From Myxococcales bacterium (GTDB taxonomy: Bacteria > Myxococcota > Myxococcia > Myxococcales > Myxococcaceae), in assembly GCA_030693825.1 (NCBI GenBank), contig JAUXZV010000023.1:102984-139345 (forward strand): 36,362 nucleotides of DNA. The letters run 5' to 3'. A program made the translations under genes and the position numbers. The notes under the pieces are model-generated. The model saw only the letters and a program-made list of their open reading frames with translations, ran no database searches and was not told the origin of the DNA. Position 1 is the first letter of the stretch. Every line of letters starts with the position of its first letter. Shown here piece by piece: positions 4,047 to 33,717 of the stretch.

Positions 4047-4083
4047 CCTTGTGGCGAGGGGCTGGAGCCCTGACAATCGAGCC

Positions 4084-6209: not shown

Positions 6210-9200
6210 TCAGGCCTTCGTCACCTTCACGGTGACGGCGTGGCCGTCGATGTCCATCGCTTCGCCGTCGCCGCTCGCCGGGACATCGAGCTTCACCGCG
6301 AGCACCTCGTCCTTGATGCGCGTGTCGTGCTCGCTGAAACAGAGCTTCAAGTCGGCGTCCGTCGTGGCGAGTGACAGCACGATGCGGTCGGAGACCTCGA
6401 GCCCGCCGTCCTTGCGGGCCTTCTGAACGCGCGACACGACTTCACGCATCAGGCCTTCGCGGCGCAACACGTCGGTGACCTTCGTGTCGAAGGCGACGGT
6501 GAGGTCTCCCGACGACTCGACGACGAACTCGCCCTTCGCGGTACGCGCGACGAGCACGTCGTCTTTCGAGATCGCCTCGCCCTGAACGGTCACGGTGCCG
6601 CCCTGCTCGAGCACCGCCCACTGCTCGCGGGTGAGCGCAGCGATCTCGACCGAGGCGTCTTTCAGCTTCTTGCCCAGCTTCTTTCCGAGCGTCTTGAGGT
6701 TGGGCTTGAAGCTCAAGGTGGCGAGCTCGGCGTCATCGGCCAGCGCGACCACCTGCTTCACGTTGAGCTCTTCTTCGAGCAACTCCGCATGGGCAGTGAG
6801 CGCCGCGCGAACGGCAGCGTCGGTCGAGACCACGGTGAGCGTCTGGAGCGGCTGCCGTGTCTTGAGCTTGTGCTTCTCACGCAGCGCACGGCCGAGGGTG
6901 ACGGTCTCTCGGGCCGACTTCATCGCCAGTTCGACGGCGCGATCGATCTTCTTCTCGTCGGGCTGCGGGTAGTTGCAGAGGTGAACGCTCTCTTCGCCCG
7001 CCTTCGCCATGCCGGTCTCGACGACCAGGTTCTGATGCAGCCGCTCCGCGAAGAACGGCAGCGCCGGAGCGATCACCTTCGAGAACGTCGTGAGCACCTC
7101 GTACAGCGTCGCGTACGCCGAGGCCTTGTCCGTCGCGTCATCGCTCTTCCAGAAACGACGGCGCGATCGACGGATGTACCAGTTCGTCAGATCGTCGATG
7201 AACCCCAGCATCGGCGGCACGACCTTGTCGAGGTAGTACCCCTCCATCTGCGTGTTGATCTCGCGTACCAGCGACTGCAGCACCGAGACGATCCACCGGT
7301 CGAGCTCCGGCCGCTGCTCGAGCGCCGGCGCCTTCGCGAGATCGGTCTTCGGGTTCCACCCATCGACGTTCGCGTAGGTGACGAAGAAGCTCCACGCGTT
7401 CTGGAGCGGCAGCAGCACGGTCCGCACGACTTCCTTCACGCCGGCTTCCGAGAAGCGCAGCGGCTCGGCGCGCACCAGCGGCGAGTTGATCAAGTACGCA
7501 CGCAGCGCATCGGCGCCGTGCTTCTCGATGACCGTGTTCGGGTCCGGGTAGTTCTGCTTGCTCTTCGACATCTTCGAGCCGTCCTCCGCGAGGACGAGCC
7601 CGTTCACGATGACGTTCTTGAACGGCGCCTTGTCGAACAGCGCCGTCGACAACACGAGCAGCGTGTAGAACCAGCCGCGCGTCTGATCGAGGCCCTCGGC
7701 GATGAACTGCGCGGGGAACGCCTGCTCGAACGCTTCCTTGTTCTCGAACGGGTAGTGCACCTGCGCGTACGGCATCGAGCCCGACTCGAACCAGCAGTCG
7801 AACACGTCGGTGATGCGCTTCATCGTCTTGCCGTTCTTCGTGAACGTCAGGTGATCGATCTTGTGTGGGTGCAGATCGGTCACCTTCTCGCCGGTGAGCT
7901 GCTCGAGCTCCTCGACCGACGTGACGCAGTGGAACTCGCTGCCGTCGTCACTGGTCCACAGCGGAATCGGCGTGCCCCAGAAGCGCGAGCGCGAGATCGA
8001 CCAGTCGCGCGCTTCTTTGAGCCAGTTCTCGAAGCGCTTCTCACCGACGAAGCCCGGCACCCAGTGGATGGAGGCGTTGTTCTTCACCATGCGCTCGCGC
8101 AATGGCTCGACCTTCACGTACCAGCTGGGCGTCGTCTTGTAGATGAGCGGCGTGCCGGACCGGTAACAGTACGGGTACTCGTGGCGGATCTGCGTGTGCT
8201 TGAAGAGCGACCCCTGCGCCTTGAGGTCGGCCATGATCTGCTTGTCGGCCTCCTTCACGTTCTTGCCCTGATACGGCGACACCTCGCCGGTGAAGTTGCC
8301 TTCAGCGTCCACCGGGTCGACCAGCTCGATGCCGTTGGCCTGGCACGCCGCGAAGTCGTCTTCACCGAACGCCGGCGCCATGTGCACGAGGCCGGTGCCG
8401 TCAGTGGTGGTGACGTGCGCGGAGTGGATGACGCGGAACGCGCCCTTCGCCTTACGGCTCGCGAAGAACGGGAACAGCGGCACGTACGTCTTGCCGATCA
8501 AGTCCTTGCCCTTGAGCGTCGCGACGACGGTCGCCTTCTCACCGAGCGTCTGCGTCAGCAGGTCCTTCGCGAGCACGTAGCGCTGGCCGTCTTCGTGATC
8601 GGCCACCACGTAGTCGATGTCGTCCTTCACGGCGACGCCGAGGTTCGACGGCAGCGTCCAGGGCGTCGTCGTCCAGATGAGCAGCGACGCCTTCTTCCCT
8701 TCCACCGGTTCATCGAGTGTCAGCCGCACCGTCAGCGCGGGATCGTCGACCGACCGGTAGTCGAGGCCAGCCTCGAAGTTCGACAGCGGCGTCGAGAGCC
8801 GCCACGAGTACGGCATCACGCGACGGCCCTGGTAGACGAGGCCCTTCTTCCACAGCTCGGCGAAGACCCACCAGACGCTCTCCATGAACGAGAGGTCCAT
8901 CGTCTTGTAGTCGTCGTCGAAGTCGACCCAGCGGCCGACGCGGGTGACGGTGCGGCGCCACTCCTCGACGTAGGTGAGCACGCTGCCGCGGCAGGCCTCG
9001 TTGAACTTCGCGACGCCGAACTCCCGAATGCTGCTCGGGCCGGTGAGGTTCAGCGTCTTCTCGACCTGCATCTCGATGGGCAGGCCGTGAGTGTCCCAGC
9101 CGAAGCGGCGCTCGACGCGAAAGCCGCGCATCGTCCAGTAGCGCGGCACGATGTCTTTGAGCGTCGAGGCCACGAGGTGGCCGTAGTGCGGCAGGCCGGT

Positions 9201-10028: not shown

Positions 10029-12701
10029 TCACGCCAGCGACTTGGTCACGATCTCGTACACGTCCTTGCTGCAGCCCTCGCGGTCGAGAATGCGCTGGAG
10101 CTCCTGCTTCATCAGCGCCTGCCTCGGTGGGTCCTGCCGCTTCCATCGCGTCAGCGGCGTCAGCATGCGCGCGGCGATCTGCGGGTTGAACACGTCGAGC
10201 GTGCGCACCTGCTCACCGAGGAACGCGTAGCCGCGGCCGCTGGCCTCGTGGAAGCGGAGCGGGTTGCTCATGCCGAGCGCCGCGATGAGCGAGCGCGCGC
10301 GGTTCGGGTTCTCGAGCGTGAACGCCTCGTGCTTCATCAGCGCCATCACGTCATCGAGCGTCTGCGGCCGCGTGCTCGTCGCCTGGAGCGCGAACCACTT
10401 GTCGACCATCAGCGCCTCGCCCTTCCACTGCGCGTAGAAGGTCTTGAAGGCCTCGTCGCGTGCAGGGCTGGTCGTCGCCGAGAGCAGTGACAACGCAGCC
10501 TGCGTGTCGGTCATCGAGCCAGCGCGGCGAAGATGCGCGAGGACTTGCGCTTCGCCATCGGCCAGCCGTGCACGCCACGCCACCATCACGTTGCGAAGGC
10601 TGCGACGGCCCACGTCATCGGGCGCGAAGCGATAGGCGACGCCATCGAGTGCCTTCGAGAGGTGCGCGTCGACCTGCGTGATGAGCGGGAGCAGCGCCGT
10701 CGCCAGCGTCGTCACGAGGTGCTCGCGGGCCCGGTGCGCGCTCGCGTAGTCGGCCCAGGCGAGGCGATCGCCGATGACGTCGATGCCGGGAACGCTGAGC
10801 GCGAGGGCGAGCAGCGCGGGATCTCCAGCAGGCGTGAGCGCGGTCGCGAGCGCCGTCTTCACTGCGTCGACGAGTTGGGCAGCCGGAGCGATGGGCTCCT
10901 TCCCACCCTGAATCGCCGCGATGCTCGCGAACAGGTGCCGCAGGAACAGCTCCTGGCCCGCCTCGACGCGGTTGAACGCATCGTCGTCATGCGCGAGCCG
11001 GAAGAGCAGGGCGGTCTCGTCGTCGTCGGTCTCGAGAATGATGGGCGCCGAGAAGCCACGCAGCAGCGACGGCACCGGAGCGTGCGAGAGCCCCGAGAAC
11101 ACGAAGCGCTGCTCCGCCTTCGTCAGCTCGAGCACGCACTCGGTGCCACGCGCGACGCCATCGACGGTGAGCTGCACCGGCTTGCCGTCCTTGCCGAGGA
11201 GCGACGTCACCACCGGCACCAGCATCGGCAGCTTCTCTGCTTGTCCCGGCGTCGGAGGAACGGTCTGCGTGAGCGTCAGCGTCCACGTGCCCTTCGCCGC
11301 GTCCCACGCGCCCTTCGACGTCACCTTCGGCGTCCCGGCCTGCGAGTACCACCGCGAGAACTGCGTGAAGTCGCGCCCGCTGACCTCGGCCATGCAGGCG
11401 AGGAAATCGTCGGTCGTCACCGCCTGGCCGTCGTGCCGGCTGAAGTACAGGTCGGTGCCTTTGCGGAAGAGCTCGTGCCCGAGCAGCGTCAAGTACATCC
11501 GGACGACCTCGGCGCCCTTCTCGTAGATGGTGACCGTGTAGAAGTTCGAGATCTCGACGTAGCTGTCGGGTCGAACCGGGTGCGCGGTCGGGCCCTGGTC
11601 TTCGGGGAACTGCAGGCTGCGCAGCCTCCGCACCTCTTCGATGCGCTTGACGGAGCGCGAGCCGACGTCGGCCGAGAACTCCTGGTCGCGGAAGACCGTG
11701 AAGCCTTCTTTGAGCGAGAGCTGGAACCAGTCACGACACGTCACGCGGTTGCCGGACCAGTGGTGGAAGTACTCGTGGCCGACGACGCCCTCGATGCCCG
11801 CGAAGTCGACGTCGGTCGCGGTGTCGGGTCGCGCGAGCACGAACTTGGTGTTGAAGACGTTGAGGCCCTTGTTCTCCATCGCGCCCATGTTGAAGTCCGA
11901 CACGGCGACGAGGTTGAAGACGTCGAGGTCGTACTCCCGGCCAAAGCGCGTCTCGTCCCACCGCATCGACTTCTTGAGGCTGTCCATGCAGTGCGCGGTC
12001 TGGTCGAGGTCGTGCGCGCGCACCCAGACGTTCAGCGCCACCTGCCTACCGCTCATCGTGGTGAACGCATCGGAGCGCGCCACCAGGTTCCCCGCGACGA
12101 CGGCGAACAGGTAGCAGGGCTTCTTGTGCGGGTCGTGCCACACGGCGACGCGGCGTTTCTTCCCGTCGATGACTTCGTCGCGCTCGCTCACCTTGTTGCC
12201 GTTGCTGAGCAGCACGGGGAAGCGCTCGGGGTCGGCGCGCAGCGTGACGGTGAAGACGCTCATCACGTCGGGGCGGTCGGCGTACCAGGTGATCTTGCGA
12301 AAGCCCTCGGCCTCGCACTGCGTGAAGAGGTTGCTCGACGATGCGTAGAGGCCCTCGAGGCTCTTGTTCTTCGATGGCGTCAGGCGCCGGCGCGTCTTCA
12401 GCGTGAAGCGGTCGGGCGGCGCGTGCAGCGTCAGCCCTCCATCGGTCACCGCGTAGGCCGACTCGGGGAGCGTCGCGCCGTCGATGGAGATGGACAGCAG
12501 CTGTCCCGAGCCCTCGGCGTCGTGGTCGCCGTCGAGCAGCACGGGGCCCTGGACGCCCGCGCGCCGGACGATGACGAGCTCCGACTCGACCTCGGTGTGG
12601 TCGAGCTCGAGGTCGAAGGTGAGCGTCACGCGCTCGATGGAGAACGGCGGCGGGGTGTATTCGGCGAGGCGAATCGTCTTCGGGGTCGCGTCTCTCGGCA
12701 T
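10029..12701 (-). CDS. pepN: Aminopeptidase N (M1 family)
   Basis: GAMENKGLNVFN exopeptidase motif. HEYFHHWSGNRVT...LSLKEGFTVFRDQEF zinc site HExxH-x18-E. N-terminus MPRDATPKTIRLAEYTPPPFSIERVTLTFDL aligns with E. coli PepN. Start at ATG 12699-12701 (minus). Confidence 0.9.
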   Translation of the reverse strand: MPRDATPKTIRLAEYTPPPFSIERVTLTFDLELDHTEVESELVIVRRAGVQGPVLLDGDHDAEGSGQLLSISIDGATLPESAYAVTDGGLTLHAPPDRFTLKTRRRLTPSKNKSLEGLYASSSNLFTQCEAEGFRKITWYADRPDVMSVFTVTLRADPERFPVLLSNGNKVSERDEVIDGKKRRVAVWHDPHKKPCYLFAVVAGNLVARSDAFTTMSGRQVALNVWVRAHDLDQTAHCMDSLKKSMRWDETRFGREYDLDVFNLVAVSDFNMGAMENKGLNVFNTKFVLARPDTATDVDFAGIEGVVGHEYFHHWSGNRVTCRDWFQLSLKEGFTVFRDQEFSADVGSRSVKRIEEVRRLRSLQFPEDQGPTAHPVRPDSYVEISNFYTVTIYEKGAEVVRMYLTLLGHELFRKGTDLYFSRHDGQAVTTDDFLACMAEVSGRDFTQFSRWYSQAGTPKVTSKGAWDAAKGTWTLTLTQTVPPTPGQAEKLPMLVPVVTSLLGKDGKPVQLTVDGVARGTECVLELTKAEQRFVFSGLSHAPVPSLLRGFSAPIILETDDDETALLFRLAHDDDAFNRVEAGQELFLRHLFASIAAIQGGKEPIAPAAQLVDAVKTALATALTPAGDPALLALALSVPGIDVIGDRLAWADYASAHRAREHLVTTLATALLPLITQVDAHLSKALDGVAYRFAPDDVGRRSLRNVMVAWRARLADGEAQVLAHLRRAGSMTDTQAALSLLSATTSPARDEAFKTFYAQWKGEALMVDKWFALQATSTRPQTLDDVMALMKHEAFTLENPNRARSLIAALGMSNPLRFHEASGRGYAFLGEQVRTLDVFNPQIAARMLTPLTRWKRQDPPRQALMKQELQRILDREGCSKDVYEIVTKSLA

Positions 12702-12740
12702 GGCGCGGGGTCTACCAGCTTCGGCCCAGGCGGTGCTGGC
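12625..12740. repeat. Direct repeat copy A (~116 bp): pepN codons 1-25 plus 39 nt of its 5' UTR
   Basis: About 86% identical (~15 mismatches plus 1 indel by hand alignment) to 19114-19230, in the same orientation. Confidence 0.7.
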
Positions 12741-12932
12741 AGTGCGGGCGACGCCAGCTGAACGGTGGAAGCCCTCGCGCGACGAATCGAGACCGACCAC
12801 TGAGGGTGCGCCGCTCACGTCGATCGCGCCGACTTCTGAGGCTCGGGGCGCGCAGTGGTCTCGCCCAGAAGCTCACCTGTCGGCGCGGTGAGATTTTTTC
12901 ATCGGCAAGCCCCGCACGTTGGAGCTATCTAG

Positions 12933-12967
12933 CGATTGTGCATTTGCGAATCGTTCTCAATATTGTC
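12933..12967. promoter_or_regulatory. AT-rich palindromic elements (CGATT-N11-AATCG; CAATATTG) at the start of the imelysin operon; candidate metalloregulator (Fur-like) operator
   Basis: Lies within a local low-GC island (12890-12990) in a ~70% GC genome. Contains the perfect 8-bp palindrome CAATATTG at 12958-12965 and a CGATT/AATCG inverted pair. Overlaps the predicted 5' end of the imelysin gene, where the codons show atypically low GC3. Confidence 0.3.
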
Positions 12968-14137
12968 CTGGTCTGGTGCGCGTCCTCCTGTACGACGCCC
13001 TCACCGAAGCCCGACCCCTCCGACGCGCCGCTCCAGCGCCAGGCGCTCGAGACGTTCGACACGGCGCTGGCGCGGCCGGCGCTCGAGAAGACGGTGACGG
13101 ACTTCGCGGCGCTCCGTGAGGCGGTCGACGGCTGGGCTCGCGCAGCGCAAGGGCAAGACGCGCAGGCGCTCACCTCGGCGAAGGCGGCGTTCGAGACGGC
13201 GTTCCTCACCTGGCAGCGGGTCGAGTTGCTTCAGCTCGGGCCCCTCGGCGCGGCGACGCAGGTGACGGCCGGTGAAGGGCTGCGAGACGAGATCTACTCA
13301 TGGCCGACGACAAACCTCTGCCGCGTCGACTCGGCGCTGGTGGCGAACACGACGCCTGACGACGCCTACTTCGCGACGGCGCTCGTCACCTCGAAGGGCC
13401 TCGCGGTGCTCGAGGAGCTGCTCTTCAACCAGTCGACGGCGAATGCGTGCCTGCCGAACGCCACCATCAACACCAACGGCAGCTGGGCCATGCTCGCGGG
13501 CTCGCCTGCGCTCGAGGAGCGGCGCAAGGCCTGGGCGCTCGGCGTGGCGCGGCACCTCGAGGCGACCGCGCGGCGCGCACGTGATGGGTGGAGCGCCCCG
13601 GGTGGCTTCGGCGACAAGCTCACGCAGGCCGGGGCCATGGGCTCGGTCTGGCGCACGCCGAAGGATGGCCTCGACGACGTCTACGCGGGGCTCTTCTATG
13701 CGGACCGCTGGGTGAAGGACTTCAAGCTGGGCGCACCAGCCGGCATCACCCCCGCGTGCATGGCGCAGTCGTGTCCCGCGCTCGCCGAGTCGCCGCGCGC
13801 CGGGCTGTCGACCAGGGCCCTGGTCGAGAACCTCGTCATGACGCGCGCCATCTTCACCGGCTCGTTCGAGCAGACCTCGAGCGCGGTGGGCTTCGACGAC
13901 CTGCTCGTCGAGCGTGGGGCCGGCGCGCTGAAGGACGAGATGCTCCAGAAGCTCGACGCAGCAGTGGCCGCCGCGCGCGCGCTCCAGCGTCCGGTCTCGG
14001 TCGCCGCCACCGAGGACCTCGACGGACTCCAGGCGCTCCACGCCGACGTCAAGGCCTTCACCGACCTCTTCAAGTCGCAGTTCGTCACCACGCTGTCGCT
14101 CAAGGTCCCCAGGGAGGGGGCCGGCGACAACGACTGA
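12938..14137 (+). CDS. Imelysin-like (Peptidase_M75 / IrpA-like) periplasmic or lipoprotein
   Basis: Helical-bundle protein with GLAVLEELLF-type and GVARHLEA motifs recalled from imelysin-like/EfeO-C family proteins. N-terminal hydrophobic signal IVLNIVLVWCASSC. Start uncertain: GTG 12938 or TTG 12944. GGAG lies 13 nt upstream of 12938. Confidence 0.6.
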   Translation: MHLRIVLNIVLVWCASSCTTPSPKPDPSDAPLQRQALETFDTALARPALEKTVTDFAALREAVDGWARAAQGQDAQALTSAKAAFETAFLTWQRVELLQLGPLGAATQVTAGEGLRDEIYSWPTTNLCRVDSALVANTTPDDAYFATALVTSKGLAVLEELLFNQSTANACLPNATINTNGSWAMLAGSPALEERRKAWALGVARHLEATARRARDGWSAPGGFGDKLTQAGAMGSVWRTPKDGLDDVYAGLFYADRWVKDFKLGAPAGITPACMAQSCPALAESPRAGLSTRALVENLVMTRAIFTGSFEQTSSAVGFDDLLVERGAGALKDEMLQKLDAAVAAARALQRPVSVAATEDLDGLQALHADVKAFTDLFKSQFVTTLSLKVPREGAGDND

Positions 14138-14168
14138 GCGCAGTGCACCCTTGTCACACAGAGGCACC

Positions 14169-15299
14169 ATGCATCGAGTTCTTCTGAGCCTGATCGTTCT
14201 TCCCGTCGCGGCCTGTGGCCCGATGGACATGCGTCTCGATGGCGGTGGTGGCGCAGGCGGCGGTTCGACCGGCTGCACCGTGACCCTCACCGGCGCCTAC
14301 CCCGACGCGGGCTTCGCGACGAACGCGGCCGCCGAGATCAGCCTCCTCGGCAAGCTCAACGCGCTCAACGCGCCGATGCGGGCCGCCGAGCTCGACGCGG
14401 GCTTCACGGTGACGCGCATGCAGCTCGACGAGCTCTTCAGCGCCGGCACGCCGTCGCTCTCGAGCCTCACCGCGGCGGGCTTCCAGCCAGTGGTCCAGGA
14501 GACCTTCACCGCCTTCCTCGCCTCCCAGGGCCGCGTGTGGACGCCGATGGACCCTCCGATGAGCGGCGGCATCTACGGCTCGGGCACCAGCCAGTGGATC
14601 TACAGTGAGCGCGGCGTCGACCTGCGGCAGGTCATCGACAAGGGGCTCTACGGCGCGCTGTTCTACGGCGAGGCGGTCAAGCGCATGCCGACGGCGACGA
14701 CGCCGGAGTCCATCGACCAGCTGCTCGCGCTCTACGGTGCCACGCCGAACTTCCCGCAGAACGACACCACGGCGCCCGGGCGCGACGAGCTGATGGCGAA
14801 GTACGCCAAGCGCCGCACGCCGCAGGGCATGACGGGGCAGTACACGACGATGCGAGATGCGTTCGTTCGCGCGCGGCTCGCGGCCGGTTCGGCCAGCTGC
14901 ACCGCCGAGCGCACGGCGGCGCTCGAGACCATCAAGAGCGAGTGGGAGGAGATGCTCGCGGCGACCGTCGTCTTCTACGTGAACTCGGCGGCGACGAAGC
15001 TGCAGGACCCGATGGCCGACGTGGCGAAGAAGTCTTCGGCGATGCACGACCTCGGGGAGGGCGCCTCGTTCTTCCTCGGGCTCAAGGCCGTGCCGCAGGC
15101 GAACCGGCGCATCACCGACGCGCAGATCGACCAGGTGCTCACGGCGATGAAGATCCCCTCGCTCGCGGGCTCGACGGCGTTCCAGTTGCTGACGACGGTG
15201 CCGCCTGACATCGACGCGCTGCTCGCGGCGAACATGCAGCTGCAGACCGTCTACGGCTTCACCGCCGATGAGATGGTGCGCTTCCGGACCAACTTCTGA
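14169..15299 (+). CDS. Lipoprotein of unknown function. Its position in imelysin/HTTM/TonB clusters suggests it could be the DUF4856-like lipoprotein of such loci (tentative).
   Basis: MHRVLLSLIVLPVAACG lipobox. Weak AGAGG RBS. Its stop overlaps the next start (TGATG), indicating translational coupling. Family assignment is from gene context only. Confidence 0.55.
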   Translation: MHRVLLSLIVLPVAACGPMDMRLDGGGGAGGGSTGCTVTLTGAYPDAGFATNAAAEISLLGKLNALNAPMRAAELDAGFTVTRMQLDELFSAGTPSLSSLTAAGFQPVVQETFTAFLASQGRVWTPMDPPMSGGIYGSGTSQWIYSERGVDLRQVIDKGLYGALFYGEAVKRMPTATTPESIDQLLALYGATPNFPQNDTTAPGRDELMAKYAKRRTPQGMTGQYTTMRDAFVRARLAAGSASCTAERTAALETIKSEWEEMLAATVVFYVNSAATKLQDPMADVAKKSSAMHDLGEGASFFLGLKAVPQANRRITDAQIDQVLTAMKIPSLAGSTAFQLLTTVPPDIDALLAANMQLQTVYGFTADEMVRFRTNF

Positions 15300-16609
15300 T
15301 GCGCGCGCGGTGGGAGCAGCTCGCGGGCTGGGCCGGCGCCTCGGAAGACGGCGCGTCGGTGCGGGTGTACCGCGCCCTCATCGGGCTGCTCCTCGCCGGA
15401 GCCCTCGTTCGCCTCCACCTGACGGGGTGGACGGGGCCGCTGTTCCTCGAGCCGACGTTCCGGTTCGAGTACGAGGCGTTCGCCTTCGTTCCCGTCATCC
15501 CGAAGGCGCTGGTGCCGTGGGCGCTCGCGGTGGGCGCGGTCGGCGCCGTGGTGCTGGGCTTCGGGGCCGGCTTGGCGCGCCGGCTGGGCGGTGTCGTCTT
15601 CCTCGCCTGCTTCGGGTGGCTCAAGCTGTATGACGTCACCAACTACCTGAACCACGACTACCTCGCGTTCCTGCTTGGGGCGCTGCTGACGGTGCTCCCG
15701 CTCGACGGCCCCTCGCTGCCGCGCTGGGCGCTGTGGCTCCTTCGTTTTCAGGTGGGCGTCGTCTACGTGCACGCCGGCCTCGCCAAGGTGAACACCGACT
15801 GGCTGCTGCACGGCCAGCCGCTCGAGACGTGGTTCGCGGCGAACCGGGGCCTGCCCGTGCTGGGCCCGTTGCTCGCGCTGCCGTTCGCGCCGCTCCTGGG
15901 GAGCTGGGCCGCTTGTCTCTACGACCTGACGATTCCGTTCTGGTTGTCGGCGCGGCGAACCCGGCCTTTCGCGCTGGTGGCGGTGCTCGTGTTCCACGGC
16001 GCGACGCACGCGCTCTTCGACATCGGCATCTTTCCCTTCCTGATGACGCTGAACGCAACGCTGTTCCTCGACCCGTCGTGGCCGCGGCGGCTCGGGTGGC
16101 GCCCGGTGGCCGTGGCGCAGGGCGGTCGGCCGCTCGGTGCAGCCCTGGCAGTTGGGCTCGCGATGTACGTCGCCTTCCAGGCGCTCTTCCCGCTGCGCTC
16201 GCACCTGCTCGGCGACGACGTGCTGTGGGACGAACAGGGCATGCGCTGGTCGTGGAAGGTGATGCTGCGCGAGAAGAACGGCGCGGTGAGCTACCGGGTG
16301 CGCGCGAAGGGCGAGACGCGCGAGTGGCAGATTGACCCTCGCGACGTGCTGACGGCGCGGCAGGCGAACGAGATGAGCGGCCAGCCGGACCTCATCGTGC
16401 AGCTTGGGCGGCACCTCGGGCGAGACCTCGCGCAGAAGCTCGGCCGGCCCGTCGAGGTGTTCGTCGACGCGAGGGTCTCGTTGAATCGGCGCGCGCCGAG
16501 GCTGCTCTTCAAGCCTGAGGTCGACCTGTTGACGCTCGAGAACCTTCGGCAGGCGCTGAACGAGTCTCCACGGCGGGCGTCTTCGCCAGAATCGGTCGCG
16601 GTGAGGTGA
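15299..16609 (+). CDS. HTTM-domain integral membrane protein (vitamin K-dependent gamma-carboxylase-like)
   Basis: VYRALIGLLLAGALVRLHL...LFLEPTFRFEYEAF...YVHAGLAKVNTDWLLHGQPLETWF matches the HTTM signature. At least 8 TM helices. Start is coupled to the upstream stop. Confidence 0.75.
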   Translation: MRARWEQLAGWAGASEDGASVRVYRALIGLLLAGALVRLHLTGWTGPLFLEPTFRFEYEAFAFVPVIPKALVPWALAVGAVGAVVLGFGAGLARRLGGVVFLACFGWLKLYDVTNYLNHDYLAFLLGALLTVLPLDGPSLPRWALWLLRFQVGVVYVHAGLAKVNTDWLLHGQPLETWFAANRGLPVLGPLLALPFAPLLGSWAACLYDLTIPFWLSARRTRPFALVAVLVFHGATHALFDIGIFPFLMTLNATLFLDPSWPRRLGWRPVAVAQGGRPLGAALAVGLAMYVAFQALFPLRSHLLGDDVLWDEQGMRWSWKVMLREKNGAVSYRVRAKGETREWQIDPRDVLTARQANEMSGQPDLIVQLGRHLGRDLAQKLGRPVEVFVDARVSLNRRAPRLLFKPEVDLLTLENLRQALNESPRRASSPESVAVR

Positions 16610-16610
16610 C

Positions 16611-19076
16611 GTGATGTGGTGGCCGGTCGTCGTGTCGTTGTTCGTCGCCCAGACGCCGACCGGTTCGGCTGACGGAGGCTCGTTCGACGAACCTCGCGGC
16701 CACTGGGAGTCCCGCACGCGAGTGAGCGAGCTGCCGCCGCTCGCCGACGGTGGCAGCTTCGAAGCGGATGAAGCTGCGGCACCGCGTGGCGTGACGGCGG
16801 CTGATCCCGACGGTGGCGGCTTCGACGCGGGAGAGGAAGCGACCCCGCGTGGCACGACGGTGGCTGACCCCGACGGTGGCGGCTTCGACGCGGGAGAGCA
16901 AGCCCGTGCCGCCACGGTGGCTGGCCCCGATGGTGGCGTGTGGGACGCCGAGGACGAAGCGGCGCCGGCCTCCGACGCCGGAGTGGGCTTCACCACGAAG
17001 GTGGTTGGGCAGCGGGGACCTGACGTTCGTCGCATCACCGGCAGCGCGGTGACGCTCGGCGAGGAAGACCTCGAGCGCCGCGAGCTCAACGACATTCATC
17101 GGGTCCTGGGTGAGGTGCCCGGCGTGTACTTTCGTGAAGAAGATGGGCTGGGCCTGCGGCCGAACATCGGCCTGCGCGGCGCGAACCCCGATCGGAGCGC
17201 GAAGGTCACGCTGATGGAAGACGGGGTGCTGCTCACGCCGGCGCCGTACTCCGCTCCCGCCGCGTACTACTTTCCGCTCGTCACCCGAATGGTGGGGCTC
17301 GAGGTCTACAAAGGGCCAGCGGCGATTCGGTTCGGCCCCCAGACGATTGGCGGCGCCATCAACCTGCGCACGCGCGAGGTGCCGAAGGAGCACCTCTTCA
17401 AGCTCGACGTCGCTGGAGGCAGCCGCTTTCAGGCGCGGGTGCACGGCGTCGCCGCGGTGGGCACGGAGCGCTGGGGCCTGCTCGCCGAGGGCGTGTTCCT
17501 GCGCGACGAGGGGTTCAAGGTGCTCGACCGCGGCGGCAACACCGGCTTCGAGCGCGGCGAGGTGATGCTGAAGGGGCGCGTGAGCCCCAACGACGCATGG
17601 CAACAGCAGCTCGAGGTGAAGGCGACGCTCTCGCTCGAGGACAGCCGGGAGACGTACCTGGGCGTGTCGACCGAGGACTTCGAGGCGACGCCGAACCGCC
17701 GGTACGCGACGACGGCGCTCGACCGGATGGAGTGGAACCGGCTCTCGGTGACGGCCCGCTGGAGCGCCCAACCGGCGTCGTGGTTGTCGTTGTCTGCGGC
17801 GGCGTACCGGCACTCGATGTTCCGCGCGTGGAATCGGCTCGATCGCTTCCGGCGGGGCCCGGGCCTGTACGAGCTGTTGGTGCAGCCGGTGCGCGGAGGA
17901 CTCGACGGTCAGTACCTCGGCGTGCTGCGCGGGGCGGTCGATTCGAGCAGCCTCGACGAGTCGCTCATCGTGCTGAACAACGCGCGCACCCTGGTGAGCC
18001 AGGGGGTGCAGGCCGAGGCGGTGGCGAAGCTGACGACGGGGCCAGTGCAGCACGAGCTCGAAGCGGGCCTGCGGTTCCACCACGACGAGGTTCGGCGCAA
18101 CCACACCGCCACCGGCTACGCAGTCGTCGGCGGCGCGCTCGAGCCTGACGCCTTGCCGGTGGCGCAGGACGCGCTCAACCGGGGGCTCTCGCGGGCCGGG
18201 GCGCTGCACCTGCATGACACCATGACGTGGGGGCGCCTGCTGGTGTCGCCGGGCATGCGCGTCGAGCTCATCGACACGGTGTTCAAGGACGACCTCTCGG
18301 GAAAGACGTCGCGGTCGCTCCAGGCGGTGCCGCTCTTCGGCGCGGGCGCGGTGGTGGCGTTGCCGCTGGGCCTCAACGTCTTTGGAGGTGTGCACCAGGG
18401 CTTCAGCCCCGTGACGCCCGGCCAGTCGGCGGACGTGCGGCCCGAGCGGGCGCTGCATGGCGAGCTCGGCGTTCGGTCGCCGTCGCGGCGTCGTCGGCTC
18501 GAGCTGGTGGGGTTCTGGAGCGAGTACTCGAACATCACCGGCGAGTGCACCGGCAGCACGGGCTGCGTCGACGACGCGCTCAACCGGCAGTTCAACGGGG
18601 GCGCGGCGCGCATCGTCGGGCTCGAGGCCCTGGCGTCGGTCGTGATTCCGCTCCCGGCCGACATCGAGCTGGTGCCTCAGGTGACGTACACCCTGACGAG
18701 CGCGCGGTTCTTGTCCGACTTCACCTCGTCGAACCCCATCTGGGGCGTGGTGCGGGCGGGCGACCTCATTCCGTACGTGCCGACGCACCAGGGCTCGGCG
18801 CGGCTCATCTTCAACCGCGACGCGCTGTCGCTGTCGGTGGGCGCGGAGTTCTCTGGTGGCGTCGTCGAGGAGGCGGGCGACGGCCTCTCGCAGCCGACGG
18901 TGCCGGGGCGGGTGTTGCTCGACGCGACGGCGAGCTACCGGGTGGGGCTGTTTCAGTTCTACGCGCAGGGCATGAACCTGACGAACCAGCAGGTGGTGGT
19001 GGCGCGGCGCCCATTCGGTGCGAGGCCGCTGGCTCCGCTCGCGGTGCAAGCCGGCGTGCGGGTGCAGTGGCCGTAG
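16611..19076 (+). CDS. TonB-dependent outer-membrane receptor with an N-terminal acidic repeat extension
   Basis: Plug domain (DIHRVLGEVPGVYF...NIGLRGANPDRSAKVTLMEDGVLL...YKGPAAIRFGPQTIGGAINLRTRE) followed by a long barrel ending ...RVQWP. The GTG at 16611 or ATG at 16614 follows GAGG. It starts 1 nt after the HTTM stop. Confidence 0.8.
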   Translation: MMWWPVVVSLFVAQTPTGSADGGSFDEPRGHWESRTRVSELPPLADGGSFEADEAAAPRGVTAADPDGGGFDAGEEATPRGTTVADPDGGGFDAGEQARAATVAGPDGGVWDAEDEAAPASDAGVGFTTKVVGQRGPDVRRITGSAVTLGEEDLERRELNDIHRVLGEVPGVYFREEDGLGLRPNIGLRGANPDRSAKVTLMEDGVLLTPAPYSAPAAYYFPLVTRMVGLEVYKGPAAIRFGPQTIGGAINLRTREVPKEHLFKLDVAGGSRFQARVHGVAAVGTERWGLLAEGVFLRDEGFKVLDRGGNTGFERGEVMLKGRVSPNDAWQQQLEVKATLSLEDSRETYLGVSTEDFEATPNRRYATTALDRMEWNRLSVTARWSAQPASWLSLSAAAYRHSMFRAWNRLDRFRRGPGLYELLVQPVRGGLDGQYLGVLRGAVDSSSLDESLIVLNNARTLVSQGVQAEAVAKLTTGPVQHELEAGLRFHHDEVRRNHTATGYAVVGGALEPDALPVAQDALNRGLSRAGALHLHDTMTWGRLLVSPGMRVELIDTVFKDDLSGKTSRSLQAVPLFGAGAVVALPLGLNVFGGVHQGFSPVTPGQSADVRPERALHGELGVRSPSRRRRLELVGFWSEYSNITGECTGSTGCVDDALNRQFNGGAARIVGLEALASVVIPLPADIELVPQVTYTLTSARFLSDFTSSNPIWGVVRAGDLIPYVPTHQGSARLIFNRDALSLSVGAEFSGGVVEEAGDGLSQPTVPGRVLLDATASYRVGLFQFYAQGMNLTNQQVVVARRPFGARPLAPLAVQAGVRVQWP
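16746..16980 (+). repeat. In-frame tandem repeat (~60-63 bp period, ~4 copies) encoding DGGGFDAGEE-A-PRGTTVADP units in the TonB receptor N-terminus
   Basis: Successive units beginning gacggtggc(a/g)gcttcga... are directly visible. Copies 2 and 3 are nearly identical over their first 30 nt. Confidence 0.6.
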
Positions 19077-19113
19077 TGCGCTGAAGGTGCCCGGCGCGCA
19101 GACTCACCACGGC

Positions 19114-19230
19114 GTCACGCGCTCGATGGAGAAGGGCGGTGGCGTGTATTCAGCGAGGCGAATCGTCTTTGGGGGTAGCGTCTCTCGGAATGGGTCGCGG
19201 TCGACCAGCTTCGGCGTGGGTGGTGCTGGC
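19114..19230 (-). pseudogene. Direct repeat copy B: a degenerate duplicate of the pepN 5' end (start region plus first ~25 codons), on the minus strand
   Basis: Minus-strand translation gives ...AEAGRPRPIPRDATPKDDSPR* versus the intact pepN ...AEAGRPRAMPRDATPKTIRLAEY. The start codon has mutated (CAT to AAT on the plus strand) and a frameshift follows. About 86% nucleotide identity to 12625-12740. Confidence 0.7.
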
Positions 19231-19579
19231 GCTGCTGCTGCCTGCCTGTTCGCGCGTGACGCCGTGCGAGCCGTGGAAGGGCTGGGAGCTGACAGCGCTG
19301 AGTGATGCGCCCGGCGAGCGCCTCGAGGTCTGCACCGAGGCGATGCTCCGTTGGCGCGTCATGCCCGGCGGCACGCCAGAGGCGTGGCTCCGTCAGCTCG
19401 AAGCCATGAAGCCCGATGGCCACTGGCGCGCGTGGCAGCGCCGCGCGCTCGTTCGCAGCGGCACCATCGGCGTCAGCCTCGACGTGCGCTCCGACGGAGA
19501 CGATCTCGTCATCACGCTCCGTCCCGACCGGCGCATCGACGTCGCCGCGGCGCTCCGCGAGCTCGAGCTGCAGCGGTAG
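19190..19579 (+). CDS. Small putative lipoprotein (129 aa) whose start and signal peptide lie inside repeat copy B
   Basis: MGRGRPASAWVVLALLLPACS lipobox. GC3 is high throughout. The ATG at 19190 is the plus-strand ATG that overlaps the former pepN start position. Confidence 0.45.
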   Translation: MGRGRPASAWVVLALLLPACSRVTPCEPWKGWELTALSDAPGERLEVCTEAMLRWRVMPGGTPEAWLRQLEAMKPDGHWRAWQRRALVRSGTIGVSLDVRSDGDDLVITLRPDRRIDVAAALRELELQR

Positions 19580-19596
19580 CCCTCACTCCGAGCGAG

Positions 19597-21234
19597 TCAC
19601 CACGGCAACAGCGGCTTGTTCGCGTCCGTCGCTCCCACCGGGCTCGACGCGACGTCGGTGCTCGCCTGCGCCATCGCGTGCTCCGCCGCCCGGCGCGCGA
19701 GCTCGGGCCACTCGGCCGCTGCACGCTTCACCGACGCGACCAGCTCCTTCTGCCCACTCGGGTACGCCGCGCCAGGCCCGCTCACCGCGAGGAAGCCATC
19801 CAACGCCTCACGGGCCGAGCGCGTGCGATTCGCCAGGTCACGCTCGAGCAGCTTCATCACCACGGTGTCGAGCGCCTCAGGGACCTCGGGTCGCAGCGCT
19901 GACGGCCGGGGAATCGGCATCGAGAAGACCGCGTGCAGCGACACCGGGTCGTCTCCCGTGGGGAAGAGGCGGGCCCCCGTCAACGCCTCGTGCAGCGTCA
20001 CGCCGAGCGCGAAGAGGTCGACGCGCCCATCGATGGGCTCACCGGCCGCCTGCTCCGGAGCGAGGTAGCCCGGCTTGCCCTTCACGATGCCGACCTGCGT
20101 GTGGTCGGCGCGGGTGGCCGCGCGCGCGATGCCGAAGTCGGCCACCTTCACCTCACCCAGCACCGACAAGAGAACGTTCGGTGGGTTCAGGTCGCGGTGA
20201 ATGAGGTTCATCGGCCGGCCATCGGGGCCGACACGCCGATGCACGTAGTCGAGCGCCTGGCACAGCTCGATGGCCAGAGTCGTCACCGCCGACAGCGGCA
20301 GGCCGACACCCTGGTACACGTCGAGCACGCGCTTGAGCGAGAGCCCGTCGACGTACTCCATGGCGAGGAAGAACGAGTCGCTGTGCCGGCCGAAGTCGAG
20401 CACCTGCACGATGTTCGGGTGATTGAGCCGGCTGCACAGCTCGGCCTCGAGACGGAACAAGCGCAGGAACTCGGCGTTCGCGCCCAGCGACGGCAGAATC
20501 TTCTTCAGCGCCACCGTCTTCTCGAAGCCGCCCTCGGGGCTGTACGTCGCCCTGAAGACCTCGGCCATGCCGCCCGAGCCCACGCGCTCGTGCAGCAGGT
20601 ACTTGCCCATCACGTCCTTCAAGCGCACCGCGGTCAGCGCCTCGGCCGCGCGCCGGTTGAAGTGCCCGACGAAGACGGCTGTCACGATGCCCGATGAGAA
20701 GAGGAGCAGGACCCGCACCGCGAAGAGGCCGGGCTGGAGCGTCACCAGCGCCTCGGGCGAGAGCCGGGGCCACGCCACGAGGAGATAGAGCAACGCATAC
20801 TCGACCGCCGCGATGGTGCCAGCGCCGATGGAGAGCGCGCGGCTGCCGCGAAACCCCGACAGCGCGACGAGCGTCGCCCACATCACGAGCGGCGGCGCGG
20901 TCAGCGCGTACTCGACGCTGTAGAGCTGGCTGTCGGCGAGGAAGAGAATCGACGGCGCCGAGACCTCGACGGCCACGTTCACCCAGCGCAGCTCGGGCCG
21001 GTACCAGCCGCGGCGCAGCGCGCGGTCCTGGATGAAGAAGTACACCGCGAGGACCGAAAGCACGACGCCCAGCACCACGCCGAGCGTCCAGCCGATGAGG
21101 GGCCCGAGCAGGAACGCAGCGACGGCCGACAGACTGCTCGCGACCGTCATGAAGCGTGCGACCGACGCCTCGCGCTGGGGCGCGTCGCGCATCAGGTGTT
21201 CTTCGAGCGCGCGCTGACCCGCTGAGGCTTGCAC
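19597..21234 (-). CDS. Membrane-anchored Ser/Thr protein kinase with a polytopic N-terminal domain
   Basis: GSGGMAEVF...VALKKI, HRDLNPPN, VADFGIA and YLAPEQ kinase subdomains. About 200 aa upstream of the kinase domain carry ~6 hydrophobic helices. Alternative start at 21192. Confidence 0.8.
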   Translation of the reverse strand: MQASAGQRALEEHLMRDAPQREASVARFMTVASSLSAVAAFLLGPLIGWTLGVVLGVVLSVLAVYFFIQDRALRRGWYRPELRWVNVAVEVSAPSILFLADSQLYSVEYALTAPPLVMWATLVALSGFRGSRALSIGAGTIAAVEYALLYLLVAWPRLSPEALVTLQPGLFAVRVLLLFSSGIVTAVFVGHFNRRAAEALTAVRLKDVMGKYLLHERVGSGGMAEVFRATYSPEGGFEKTVALKKILPSLGANAEFLRLFRLEAELCSRLNHPNIVQVLDFGRHSDSFFLAMEYVDGLSLKRVLDVYQGVGLPLSAVTTLAIELCQALDYVHRRVGPDGRPMNLIHRDLNPPNVLLSVLGEVKVADFGIARAATRADHTQVGIVKGKPGYLAPEQAAGEPIDGRVDLFALGVTLHEALTGARLFPTGDDPVSLHAVFSMPIPRPSALRPEVPEALDTVVMKLLERDLANRTRSAREALDGFLAVSGPGAAYPSGQKELVASVKRAAAEWPELARRAAEHAMAQASTDVASSPVGATDANKPLLPW

Positions 21235-21651: not shown

Positions 21652-22239
21652 TCACTCGGCCAGCACGCGCTCCCTCAGCGTCGGCGCCACGAGCCCATCG
21701 GAGCGTTCCCTCGGATTCTCGAGCTTCGACGGGTTGACCCCGATCGCGCCGGTCTTCGTGAGCGCGGTCGGCATTCCGCCATCGGAGTCGATTCGCTCCC
21801 AGGCCGCGTAGACACCGCGTCTGCACAGATGGTTGGTCGGGTTTTCGTCGACGCAGCGCTGAAACACCTCGGCTGCCTTGCGCCACTCGTGCGGCCCGGT
21901 GGTCTCGCTCAACACCAGCTTCACGGCGTACTTCAGCTCGGGCGAGTCGGCGCTCTCGAACGGTGACGGCGCGAACTCGACGGTGGGGCCCGGCTTCGCG
22001 GCCGCGACGCCAGCGTCACTCCCTGCCTCGACGACAGCCGCGGTCGGGGCGCCCATCGCCGGCTGGGTAGGCGCGGCCACCGTTCCCGTCATGGCGGCAG
22101 GTGGAGCGCCGACCTCCGCGACCGGCGCTGGCGACGTCGCCGACGGAGCGGAGTCGTCGTCGCCCAGAATGAGAAAGAGTCCCAGGGCGATCATCACCAC
22201 CGCGACCGCGGCGAGCGCCAGACGCTGCGTGTTCGTCAC
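21652..22239 (-). CDS. Membrane-anchored hypothetical protein (N-terminal TM, Pro/Ala-rich linker, C-terminal globular domain)
   Basis: GTG start at 22237-22239 with AGGAGG 6 nt upstream. Its start overlaps the upstream stop (GTGA). No family recognised. Confidence 0.6.
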   Translation of the reverse strand: MTNTQRLALAAVAVVMIALGLFLILGDDDSAPSATSPAPVAEVGAPPAAMTGTVAAPTQPAMGAPTAAVVEAGSDAGVAAAKPGPTVEFAPSPFESADSPELKYAVKLVLSETTGPHEWRKAAEVFQRCVDENPTNHLCRRGVYAAWERIDSDGGMPTALTKTGAIGVNPSKLENPRERSDGLVAPTLRERVLAE

Positions 22240-26419: not shown

Positions 26420-26593
26420 GGTGTTGCTGCTCCCGATGAAGCGCCCCGCCGGCCACGGAGAGAGCGCCTCTGAAGCAACCCTGTACCCGAAACACGGGGC
26501 TTGCTTCAAATCTTCGACCCGCACGCGTCACCGCCCTGCGTCGGACGTCTGGTGGATGGTGGGTTCGCAGTGGTCGGGTAGAACCACCTCGCG

Positions 26594-27373
26594 ATGACGA
26601 CGGCGGCGGTGGAAGCGAAGGGGCTCACCAAGCGGTTCGGCGACTTCACGGCCGTCAACGCGCTCGACATGACGATTCCCCGCGGCAGCTTCTACGCGTT
26701 CCTCGGGCCCAACGGCGCCGGCAAGTCGACGACCATCTCGCTGCTGACGGGCATCTATGCGCCCGATGGCGGCTCGTTGTCGTTGCTGGGCATCGACGCG
26801 GTGAAGGACCCGCTCGCGGTGAAGTCGCGCGTCGGCGTGGTGCCCGAGGAGCTCTCGTTGTTCGAGCGCCTCACCGGCCGGCAGTACCTGACGTTCTGCG
26901 GCCGCATGCACGGCCTTCTGGGTGACGAGTCCGAGCGGCGCGCGGACGAACTGCTGACGCTCACCGAGCTCTCGTACAAGGGTGGCGCGCTGGTGGCGGA
27001 GTACTCCAAGGGCATGCGCCGCCGGCTCGCCATCGCCGCTGCGCTCGTGCACGCGCCCGACCTGGTCTTCCTCGACGAGCCGTTCGAGGGCATCGACGTC
27101 ATCGCCGCTGGTGTCATTCGCGAGCTGTTGTCGGAGCTGTCGCGCCGCGGCGTCACCCTGCTGCTCACGACGCACGTGCTCGAGATCGCCGATCGCCTCG
27201 CCACCCACGCCGGCATCATTCGCGCTGGAAAGCTGGTGGACGAAGGGCCGGTGGCCGAGCTCGTCGCCCGGCACGAGGTGAAGTCGCTCGAGCAGGTGTT
27301 CGAGAAGCTCATCGGGGTGCCGGTGGCGCGAGACGCGAAGCTGTCGTTCTACGGAGCGGCGCGTGCAGGCTGA
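26594..27373 (+). CDS. ABC transporter ATP-binding protein (ABC-2 type)
   Basis: Walker A GPNGAGKSTT, signature YSKGMRRRL, Walker B LVFLDEPFEGID. Confidence 0.85.
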   Translation: MTTAAVEAKGLTKRFGDFTAVNALDMTIPRGSFYAFLGPNGAGKSTTISLLTGIYAPDGGSLSLLGIDAVKDPLAVKSRVGVVPEELSLFERLTGRQYLTFCGRMHGLLGDESERRADELLTLTELSYKGGALVAEYSKGMRRRLAIAAALVHAPDLVFLDEPFEGIDVIAAGVIRELLSELSRRGVTLLLTTHVLEIADRLATHAGIIRAGKLVDEGPVAELVARHEVKSLEQVFEKLIGVPVARDAKLSFYGAARAG

Positions 27374-30243: not shown

Positions 30244-30272
30244 CAGCGCTGCGCTCCAGGGCTTCGAGCGCG

Positions 30273-33711: not shown

Positions 33712-33717
33712 GGTGGG

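Follow-up and report, generated by a model that had tools for sequence, protein, structure and literature searches.

Bacterial homologues of the vitamin-K-dependent carboxylase have been recorded among iron-responsive genes in Riemerella anatipestifer, where four consecutive genes, RAYM_09779-09794, are tabulated as Fur-regulated, with ratios of about 2-3 upon iron restriction (PMC5609570, Table 4). Their products are annotated as a TonB-dependent receptor, a 'vitamin K-dependent gamma-carboxylase', an imelysin lipoprotein and a hypothetical protein, and are listed without comment; at the RNA level, the cluster responds both to iron and to the deletion of fur (PMC5609570). In addition, where an HTTM protein lacks part of the clamp of the human carboxylase GGCX, DUF5819 has been predicted to provide this part in trans (bioRxiv 10.64898/2026.08.19.745780), and a branch of imelysin-like proteins with a His-less GxxxxE motif has been described for IPPA and PA4372 (PMC3143127). 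Here we analyse a 36,362-nt stretch of DNA from a Myxococcales bacterium, hereafter called the window, in which four genes, named g1 to g4 in map order, lie on the + strand at 12938-19076. They encode an imelysin-like lipoprotein, a DUF4856 lipoprotein, a homologue of the gamma-glutamyl carboxylase that depends on vitamin K (VKGC), with an HTTM domain, and a TonB-dependent outer-membrane receptor.

The operon joins two long-standing questions, namely the imelysin-like "iron-regulated proteins" and the bacterial homologues of the vitamin-K-dependent carboxylase. The locus in the window is an ordinary member of a large cluster family, and this family is a variant of the imelysin-type iron systems that has recruited a vitamin-K-carboxylase homologue. 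We propose that g1-g4 constitute a Fur-repressed, TonB-dependent iron-acquisition module, in which the VKGC-like g3 would carboxylate, in a reaction dependent on menaquinol and O2, an acidic residue of an exported partner, the likeliest being g1. This proposal is tentative, and we place its probability at roughly 0.3-0.4. The initial annotation of the window had described the neighbourhood as one noted in comparative analyses; we found no paper discussing it, only the four rows of the single Riemerella table (PMC5609570). Our literature search found no paper combining imelysin and HTTM, none mentioning DUF4856, and nothing linking a vitamin-K carboxylase with Myxococcus.

The Fur-type operator and the operon

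How would the expression of g1-g4 be controlled? The AT-rich palindrome TGCGAATCGTTCTCA at 12945-12959 is a 7-1-7 inverted repeat (TGCGAAT-C-GTTCTCA), which forms the core of the Fur-type operator TTGCGAATCGTTCTCAATATT at 12944-12964 (no strand assigned), and the operator overlaps codons 3-9 of g1. In the 36-kb window, this box is the sole match with four or fewer mismatches to the textbook Fur consensus TGATAATNATTATCA. It differs by one mismatch from the core of the cluster-wide consensus TTGAGAATCGTTCTCAATTTC, as compared to 0.14 matches expected by chance (up to 2 mismatches), and is therefore not expected by chance. Moreover, the related loci L001-L012 carry the same box at the same position.

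The box is also found beyond these close relatives. We scanned 80 loci from related genomes (1.34 Mb) with the consensus TGATAATNATTATCA, allowing up to 3 mismatches, and 37 of the 76 matches fell within -300 to +60 of the imelysin start, a region making up about 2% of the sequence, where about 1.5 would be expected. Upstream of the cluster, such boxes were present in about half of 73 loci. Many of the remaining matches are located 1.2-2.8 kb upstream of the imelysin gene, and in both of the distal cases checked by Pfam (L014 and L020), the distal box is at the promoter of a DUF4856 gene preceding imelysin. Perfect boxes occur in Myxococcus sp. Y35 (TGATAATCATTATCA, L048) and in L043 (TGATAATGATTATCA). 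In the Bacteroidota genus Ekhidna, TTTAGAATGATTCTAAA lies 55 nt upstream of the cluster and matches the Fur box proposed for Riemerella (PMC5609570). The "palindrome-bearing promoter" of the initial annotation thus contains a real palindrome, which by its consensus match is a Fur-type operator. The link to iron, also proposed there, is supported, because Fur boxes are conserved here and in related loci and because RNA-sequencing data are available for the homologous Riemerella cluster. We are confident that g1-g4 are a Fur-type-regulated unit, as predicted from the operator; by analogy with the Riemerella cluster, in which this response was observed, the unit would be induced upon iron limitation.

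Another member of the Fur family, such as Zur, Mur, Nur or PerR, might occupy the palindrome instead, in which case the cluster would serve zinc or manganese uptake or a peroxide response. The boxes of the Fur family are alike, the window box is 4 positions off the classical Fur consensus, and the imelysin genes of Leptospira respond not only to iron but also to peroxide (PMC7567364). In contrast, the related boxes match the Fur 7-1-7 consensus exactly or nearly, as in L048 and L043. The PerR and Zur variants of the box are TTATAATNATTATAA and TCGTAATNATTACGA, and the related boxes do not match them. Furthermore, the Riemerella cluster responds to iron and to the deletion of fur, and a ferritin gene and a second box stand beside the Ekhidna cluster. 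We thus consider another regulator or metal very unlikely, and retain Fur and iron in the preferred reading.

Several further boxes were observed. In the window, a second and weaker match to the cluster consensus, TGGGACTCTTTCTCA, with 2 mismatches at 22170-22184 on the - strand, lies in or near an open reading frame at 21652-22239 and is probably due to chance. Four loci carry a double overlapping Fur-like box, TGAAGATGATTATCAATGTCA, just past the receptor gene (L037, 13896-13916; L042, 7865-7885; L064, 13937-13957; L077, 13898-13918), which suggests that a further iron-regulated gene may lie beside the cluster. In Ekhidna (L085), a second perfect Bacteroidota-type Fur box, TAGAATAATTCTA, occurs at 14669, after the receptor gene and ahead of small open reading frames and the ferritin gene (15297-15824); a pair of extracytoplasmic function sigma and anti-sigma factors is encoded upstream of this cluster. 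L048, L044, L046, L056 and L071 are among the loci with two Fur boxes in the intergenic region shared by the receptor and the cluster.

We next consider the arrangement of the genes. The g1/g2 junction is a 31-nt spacer with a Shine-Dalgarno-like AGAGG element ahead of the ATG at 14169, and the two genes do not overlap. At the g2/g3 junction (...TTCTGATGCGC), the stop codon TGA at 15297-15299 and the ATG at 15299-15301 share 1 nt (TGATG). At the g3/g4 junction, TGA-C-GTG-ATG, the stop codon ends at 16609, a GTG follows 1 nt after it at 16611, and an ATG is at 16614. Two of the three junctions are accordingly as tight as the initial annotation had it for all four genes, and the spacer between g1 and g2 is the departure. 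Within 12600-19700, the terminator-like sites do not exceed the shuffled expectation (3 found, 2.8 expected), and no sigma-70 consensus promoter stands above chance. With all genes on one strand, junctions of +31, -1 and +1 nt, and internal terminator-like sites at the chance level, g1-g4 are an operon by their layout and would be transcribed together.

The GC content at the third codon position (GC3) is 0.85-0.91 in the frames of g1-g4, and that at the first position (GC1) exceeds that at the second (GC2); the long open reading frames on the opposite strand therefore look like high-GC shadows. The GTG start of g1 at 12938 is supported by L005, in which an ATG occupies the equivalent position with respect to the Fur box. 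A possible -10 element, TATCTA, was read by eye at 12926-12931, near this GTG, and would imply a leaderless mRNA or one with a very short leader. The flanking genes are unrelated and lie on the - strand, a pepN-like M1 aminopeptidase gene at 10029-12818 (divergent) and a Ser/Thr kinase gene at 19597-21234 (convergent), and the four-gene unit is therefore discrete. The window is of myxobacterial origin: the g3 protein is 100% identical to one that NCBI lists under 'MAG: Myxococcales bacterium', and the whole locus shares 97-99% protein identity with L001, a metagenome-assembled genome labelled Archangium sp. A small + strand open reading frame at 19190-19579, with a lipoprotein signal (MGRGRPASAWVVLALLLPAC...), starts 115 nt past the receptor gene. 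As a candidate fifth gene, it had its only tblastn match in the near-identical L001, with a query that, being one base out of frame, was informative only for near-identical DNA.

Distribution of the cluster and its proteins

To what extent is the cluster conserved? Species-representative genomes (one per species) were scanned with an alignment of g3 relatives and encode at least 475 of them; the neighbourhood counts refer to the best 80 of these, which are nearly all from Myxococcota and allies. The initial annotation placed the neighbourhood mostly in Bacteroidetes, which is not the picture in this sample. Its occurrence in Bacteroidota is nevertheless real, with clusters in Chondrinema and Ekhidna and with RAYM_09779-09794 in Riemerella (PMC5609570). 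The gene immediately upstream of HTTM encodes imelysin in 65 of the 80 loci (L028 and L078, with overlapping genes, are counted here), and in another 10 a DUF4856 gene separates an upstream imelysin gene from HTTM; the locus is cut in 4, and imelysin is absent in 1. The linkage of imelysin and HTTM thus holds in 75 of the 76 informative loci, and the two genes often overlap by 8 nt. A TonB receptor gene is adjacent in 70 of 75, on the same strand after HTTM in 57 and divergent a few kb upstream in 13, and the other 5 loci are cut. These counts confirm that the neighbourhood is conserved. Of its four supposed members, however, only imelysin, the VKGC-like enzyme and the TonB receptor form the core, while DUF4856 is a frequent accessory.

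The gene order varies. The clade of the window has imelysin-DUF4856-HTTM-receptor, L014 and L020 have DUF4856-imelysin-HTTM-receptor, and other loci have imelysin-HTTM-receptor alone, with overlapping frames. In Ekhidna, the order is DUF4856-like, M75, HTTM and TonB receptor, and no di-haem enzyme is present. In Chondrinema, also of the Bacteroidota, the order is imelysin, di-haem oxidoreductase, imelysin, HTTM and TonB receptor; this operon is a classical imelysin cluster of the Pseudomonas/Leptospira type to which HTTM and receptor genes have been appended, and the full-length identity between its HTTM protein and g3 is 31%. In the Myxococcus/Corallococcus loci, the receptor gene is divergent (L048, L034, L044, L046, L056 and L071). 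That of Myxococcus sp. Y35 (L048) is accompanied by a DUF5122 beta-propeller (7046-8548, - strand), and an M48 peptidase gene (11393-12514, + strand) follows HTTM.

On a larger scale, a profile search with the enzyme against 1.84 billion representatives found 2,425 cluster representatives (50% identity) at E <= 1e-30. Among the divergent family members, 5 of the 7 informative neighbourhoods sampled have an adjacent imelysin gene, TonB receptor gene or both. The other two, which rule out a universal imelysin/receptor context, are lone compact VKGC-like genes among housekeeping neighbours (L088 and L092; ribosomal proteins and skp/lpxC in one case, rnpA/yidD in the other), with no imelysin or receptor gene nearby. 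Since these genes stand alone, the VKGC-like family may have more than one role.

All four gene products exceed the curated Pfam thresholds, and the family assignments made initially therefore stand. The product of g3 (15299-16609, + strand, 436 residues) scores 174.3 bits for HTTM (PF05090) and 118.4 bits for VKGC_lumenal_dom (PF22777), and matches human GGCX in phmmer with an E-value of 5e-18. We mapped the GGCX residues onto g3 by combining the phmmer alignment, the catalytic base Lys218, the substrate-holding residues and the quinone pocket reported in a cryo-electron microscopy study (10.1101/2025.02.09.637231), and the invariant columns of an alignment of 20 family members with identities to g3 down to 45%. 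Lys218 corresponds to K163, and His160 and Asn159, which both hold the substrate carboxylate in GGCX, correspond to H119 and N118; all three are invariant. The residues of the quinone/isoprenyl pocket, V210, A214, W223, F286, F294 and F299, correspond to V155, A159, W168, F232, F240 and F245, which are likewise invariant. These catalytic and pocket residues are also visible in the 31%-identical Chondrinema protein, while Lys217 of GGCX is not conserved in g3.

The AlphaFold2 model of g3 is that of a polytopic membrane protein (predicted local distance difference test score, pLDDT, 87.4; predicted template-modelling score 0.86). In a Foldseek search with this model, all 16 significant matches in the PDB were GGCX entries, with template-modelling scores of 0.75-0.78 and E-values of about 1e-18; these scores are normalised to the query, and normalisation to the target gives only about 0.5. 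We are confident that g3 truly belongs to the carboxylase family and, as judged from its residues, retains an intact half-site for the oxygenation of vitamin K (presumably menaquinol). By homology, the active site is expected to face the periplasm. The second substrate need not be a Glu peptide of the Gla-domain type (Gla, gamma-carboxyglutamate). Among ten unusually long family members, no fusion of HTTM with imelysin or the receptor was found, and one has C-terminal TPR repeats.

These observations bear on whether g3 is an enzyme at all. A non-catalytic g3 would be a membrane scaffold or an inner-membrane conduit for the imported iron; the protein is polytopic, and the operon lacks any inner-membrane transporter. 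Nevertheless, the equivalents of the catalytic Lys, His160, Asn159 and nine residues of the quinone pocket are invariant across the 20 sequences, and the only structural relatives are GGCX entries, transporters appearing in the Foldseek search only with E-values above 0.5. We regard a non-catalytic g3 as highly improbable, and the proposal of a carboxylating g3 is kept.

The partner protein g1 (12938, GTG, to 14137, + strand; 399 residues) matches PF09375 with 79.4 bits (cutoff 23.5) over profile positions 3-283 of 288. A profile of the g1 family matches the solved structures of PIBO (3n8u, 1e-24) and IPPA (3pf0, 1e-15), as well as 4ecg and ICMP (7xrx), while single-sequence PDB searches with g1, g2 and the g1 tail peptide gave nothing useful. 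The histidine of the GxHxxE motif is missing: G-L-A-V-L-E in the window and G-L-D-A-L-E in the family consensus align with G-F-H-T-L-E of PIBO. By this motif, g1 belongs to the His-less GxxxxE imelysin branch. Among annotated records, it is best matched by the second, His-less imelysin genes of imelysin-di-haem-imelysin clusters. The N-termini of both g1 and g2 are lipoprotein signal peptides, and nearly all g1 orthologues have a lipobox.

The extreme C-terminus of g1 is an acidic tail, E-G-A-G-D-N-D (14114-14134, + strand), of which the final D-N-D is invariant. D-N-D followed by the stop codon is found in 71 of the 71 loci whose match reaches the C-terminus, usually as ...P-x-E-G-A-G-D-N-D, and related D-G-D tails end the imelysin-2 of Chondrinema, Azospirillum and Ekhidna. 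We considered the GDND tail as a signature of HTTM-linked imelysins, which the Azospirillum imelysin-2 (...ELDGD) rules out, as its operon has no HTTM gene. By this comparison, the acidic tail characterises the His-less imelysin branch and does not mark HTTM linkage. It nevertheless stays a candidate substrate or metal ligand because of its C-terminal position, acidity and invariance.

About half of the 71 loci (e.g., L081, 10001-10008) encode the Asn of the terminal D-N-D by AAT, an unusual choice at a genomic GC3 of about 90%. The sequence GACAATGACTGA holds the ATG of the overlapping HTTM gene, and one short sequence thereby provides the invariant tail, the stop codon and the next start codon. 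That the tail is conserved as an artefact of this gene overlap is only partly true, as D-N-D is invariant also with an AAC codon and where DUF4856 follows, as in the window.

The g2 protein (14169, ATG, to 15299, + strand; 376 residues; lipobox VAAC) matches PF16148 with 36.4 bits (cutoff 22.3), although only profile positions 209-328 of 358, about a third, are matched. Most of the close g2 homologues carry a precomputed PF16148 match, and the larger DUF4856 proteins encoded upstream in L014 and L020 align with different parts of this profile. The AlphaFold2 model of g2 is all-helical (pLDDT 89.8) and has no significant solved relative. The possibility that g2 is a hidden second imelysin was rejected, as no relationship to the imelysin fold was detectable.

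Finally, the product of g4 (16611-19076, + strand, 821 residues) has a hydrophobic N-terminus, a Plug domain at residues 139-249 (45.9 bits) and a TonB_dep_Rec_b-barrel domain at 358-790 (80.2 bits), the features of a TonB-dependent receptor. A candidate TonB box, F-T-T-K-V-V-G, was read by eye just ahead of the plug, and similar x-V-V-V-G/I-x-I-V-G strands occur in the orthologues. The best NCBIfam and PDB relative is FecA, and the score of 95.8 bits is far below the equivalog cutoff of 1100 for NF041676; g4 is therefore FecA-like only in a general sense, and it lacks the N-terminal signalling domain. We are confident that the operon encodes an outer-membrane uptake unit with two lipoproteins. 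Within g4, Tandem Repeats Finder reports a 63-bp tandem repeat at 16744-16903 (+ strand; 2.5 copies, 85% matches), which encodes the acidic sequence D-P-D-G-G-G-F-D-A-G-E-E...P-R-G (DPDGGGFDAGEE..PRG) in the periplasmic N-terminal extension. Acidic N-terminal extensions of low complexity (runs of D, E, DA and DS) are likewise carried by many receptors from related loci. Their sequences are unrelated, and we discarded the acidic repeats as a conserved motif.

Proposed mechanism and alternatives

Expression and uptake: When iron is scarce, Fur would leave the operator at the start of g1, and the four genes would be expressed as one unit. The FecA-like g4 would then bring an iron source into the periplasm, where the lipoproteins g1 and g2 would handle it.

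Modification: The g3 protein would reside in the inner membrane with its active site facing the periplasm and would bind menaquinol. Lys163 would deprotonate the menaquinol, and its reaction with O2 would yield a strong base, which would act on a carboxylate-bearing substrate held beside Asn118 and His119. The likeliest reaction would be the carboxylation of an acidic residue of g1, with the invariant and flexible ...EGAGDND tail as the candidate site, or of another exported partner. The g1 protein is the most economical candidate substrate because its gene is always adjacent and often translationally overlapping. It may also replace the missing clamp domain of GGCX, as proposed for the DUF5819-HTTM pairs.

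Iron capture: The product would be a metal-chelating group of the malonate type, suitable for the capture or hand-over of iron. Protein modification by g3, which the initial annotation found conceivable, is a conjecture: the vitamin-K oxygenase residues are kept, but g3 has no propeptide-binding domain and its Glu pocket has partly diverged.

A number of observations weigh against this mechanism. First, the positions that bind the Glu site and backbone in GGCX differ (N158 to L117, Y395 to M315 and R436 to E358), although the last two lie in a weak part of the alignment (domain 2, 12 bits). Second, the propeptide-binding clamp (GGCX residues ~495-700) is absent, as g3 ends at residue 436, equivalent to about human residue 490. 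Third, the acidic tail of g1 is not specific to the HTTM-linked clusters, as the Azospirillum ...ELDGD shows, and two of the seven family members sampled stand alone, away from iron genes. In addition, the operon encodes no inner-membrane iron transporter. The Leptospira GGCX orthologue studied by Rishavy et al. in 2005 reportedly epoxidised vitamin K but did not carboxylate. Finally, the bacterial VKOR homologues studied so far are without epoxide reductase activity (PMC4555120), and each turnover may therefore destroy a menaquinone. As the epoxide would not be recycled, a low-flux reaction such as protein modification is favoured, and a high-flux role is disfavoured.

The recycling problem would be avoided if g3 were an iron redox enzyme that modifies no protein, performing a quinol:Fe(III) reductase or ferroxidase-like step on iron delivered by the receptor and held by imelysin. 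Menaquinol would serve as the electron donor, or vitamin-K oxygenation as the oxidant, and g3 would fill the niche of EfeB in EfeUOB or of the di-haem oxidoreductase in the classical imelysin clusters. The quinone pocket and the catalytic Lys are kept while part of the Glu site is not, and the clusters of Myxococcota and Ekhidna have HTTM and no di-haem enzyme, for which HTTM could substitute. However, the Chondrinema operon holds both the di-haem oxidoreductase and HTTM, and the two are therefore not simple alternatives. Moreover, N118 and H119, the counterparts of the carboxylate holders in GGCX, are invariant, and metal reduction or oxidation is known for no enzyme of the HTTM fold. A redox role is thus possible but doubtful.

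The divergent Glu-peptide site and the absent propeptide clamp would also fit a non-protein substrate. In this case, g3 would carboxylate or base-activate a low-molecular-weight carboxylate ligand in the periplasm, and g1 would be the ligand-binding protein. The ligand could be an iron chelate, of the citrate or peptide type, that the cell imports, or a chelator that it exports. A model for this activity is MloH, a bacterial VKGC orthologue which acts on an aspartyl unit of a polyketide-peptide intermediate; the FecA-like receptor is, in addition, related to an importer of carboxylate chelates. On the other hand, no siderophore or biosynthetic genes lie in or beside the cluster in the window and the loci inspected, and without recycling of the epoxide, the stoichiometric loss of one menaquinone per ligand would come at a high cost. 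We therefore judge a small-molecule substrate unlikely, and carboxylation of an exported protein partner remains our preferred reading.

What would the carboxylation of g1 mean for the family as a whole? In the broadest form of the proposal, iron acquisition would be the ancestral and still widespread bacterial job of the VKGC family, in which g3 carboxylates the ...EGAGDND tail of g1, or another exported partner, to produce malonate ligands of the Gla or carboxy-Asp type that bind Fe(III) from the TonB receptor. We consider this broad form decidedly unlikely. If it is true, bacteria would have their first described case of vitamin-K-dependent protein carboxylation, and the imelysin-like proteins would gain a biochemical role. 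A modification by g3 would extend vitamin-K-dependent carboxylation to bacteria and hint at the origin of the animal enzyme; if there is none, the cluster would point to a novel role for quinol oxygenation chemistry in the uptake of metals. The cluster is abundant, occurs in at least two phyla, has Fur boxes and encodes an enzyme with an intact vitamin-K oxygenase site, and its cultured carriers include Myxococcus, Corallococcus, Hyalangium and Riemerella.

Apart from the operon, three regions of the window deserve mention. A Haem_oxygenas_2 ("iron-containing redox enzyme") gene at 4051-4809 (+ strand) stands beside a pyruvate phosphate dikinase gene, with no Fur box nearby. At 29779-35949 (- strand), a run of genes of the secreted-nuclease type encodes an SNase, a 782-residue protein with four lamin-tail domains, a second SNase and a 743-residue helix-hairpin-helix protein. 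At 24728-26597, the coding strand is ambiguous: a - strand open reading frame of 598 codons, with GC2 above GC1 and no Pfam match, overlaps + strand open reading frames.

Comparison with known systems

As compared to the ferric-dicitrate receptor FecA, its best solved and NCBIfam relative (95 bits over the plug and the first barrel strands), g4 has an acidic repeat extension in place of the N-terminal signalling domain. The EfeUOB system of E. coli and B. subtilis likewise takes up iron with an M75 metal-handling protein that works together with a redox enzyme and a membrane transporter (PMC3143127). In contrast to g1, however, EfeO has a cupredoxin domain and an HxxE motif; the redox partner in EfeUOB is a DyP peroxidase, and its transporter is the inner-membrane permease EfeU rather than a TonB receptor.

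For g3, the GGCX structures (PDB 9l6s, 9bvq and 9wfc) share its fold in the membrane domain and in the initial portion of the lumenal domain. GGCX is, however, 758 residues long, as compared to 436 in g3, which lacks the C-terminal propeptide-binding clamp. Moreover, the gene for g3 shares an iron-regulated operon with genes for a TonB receptor and lipoproteins, and there is no evident Gla-domain substrate. MloH of malonomycin biosynthesis is also a bacterial HTTM/VKGC-like enzyme and carboxylates a non-Glu substrate. Together with the DUF5819-HTTM pairs, it provides a precedent for bacterial HTTM enzymes with partner proteins or non-Glu substrates. Their contexts differ from that of g3: MloH belongs to a biosynthetic gene cluster, DUF5819 occurs in Firmicutes with a DCC1-like domain, and iron regulation, imelysin and a TonB receptor are not involved there.

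The Riemerella genes RAYM_09779-09794 are alike in the whole unit, with the same four annotated products in a row, induced under iron restriction and placed in the Fur-regulated list (PMC5609570). They belong to Bacteroidota, whereas the window belongs to Myxococcota, and they are taken as orthologous on the strength of their annotation and of the clusters in Ekhidna and Chondrinema. The classical imelysin clusters, namely PA4370-4373 of P. aeruginosa, the lruB operon of Leptospira and the plasmid locus of Azospirillum (L084), resemble the window in being Fur- or iron-regulated and in encoding imelysin-like lipoproteins (PMC3143127). They have, in addition, a His-containing imelysin, a di-haem oxidoreductase and often DUF1513, none of which is present in the window. 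Instead, the window has DUF4856, the VKGC-like enzyme and the TonB receptor, and the Chondrinema operon combines both sets.

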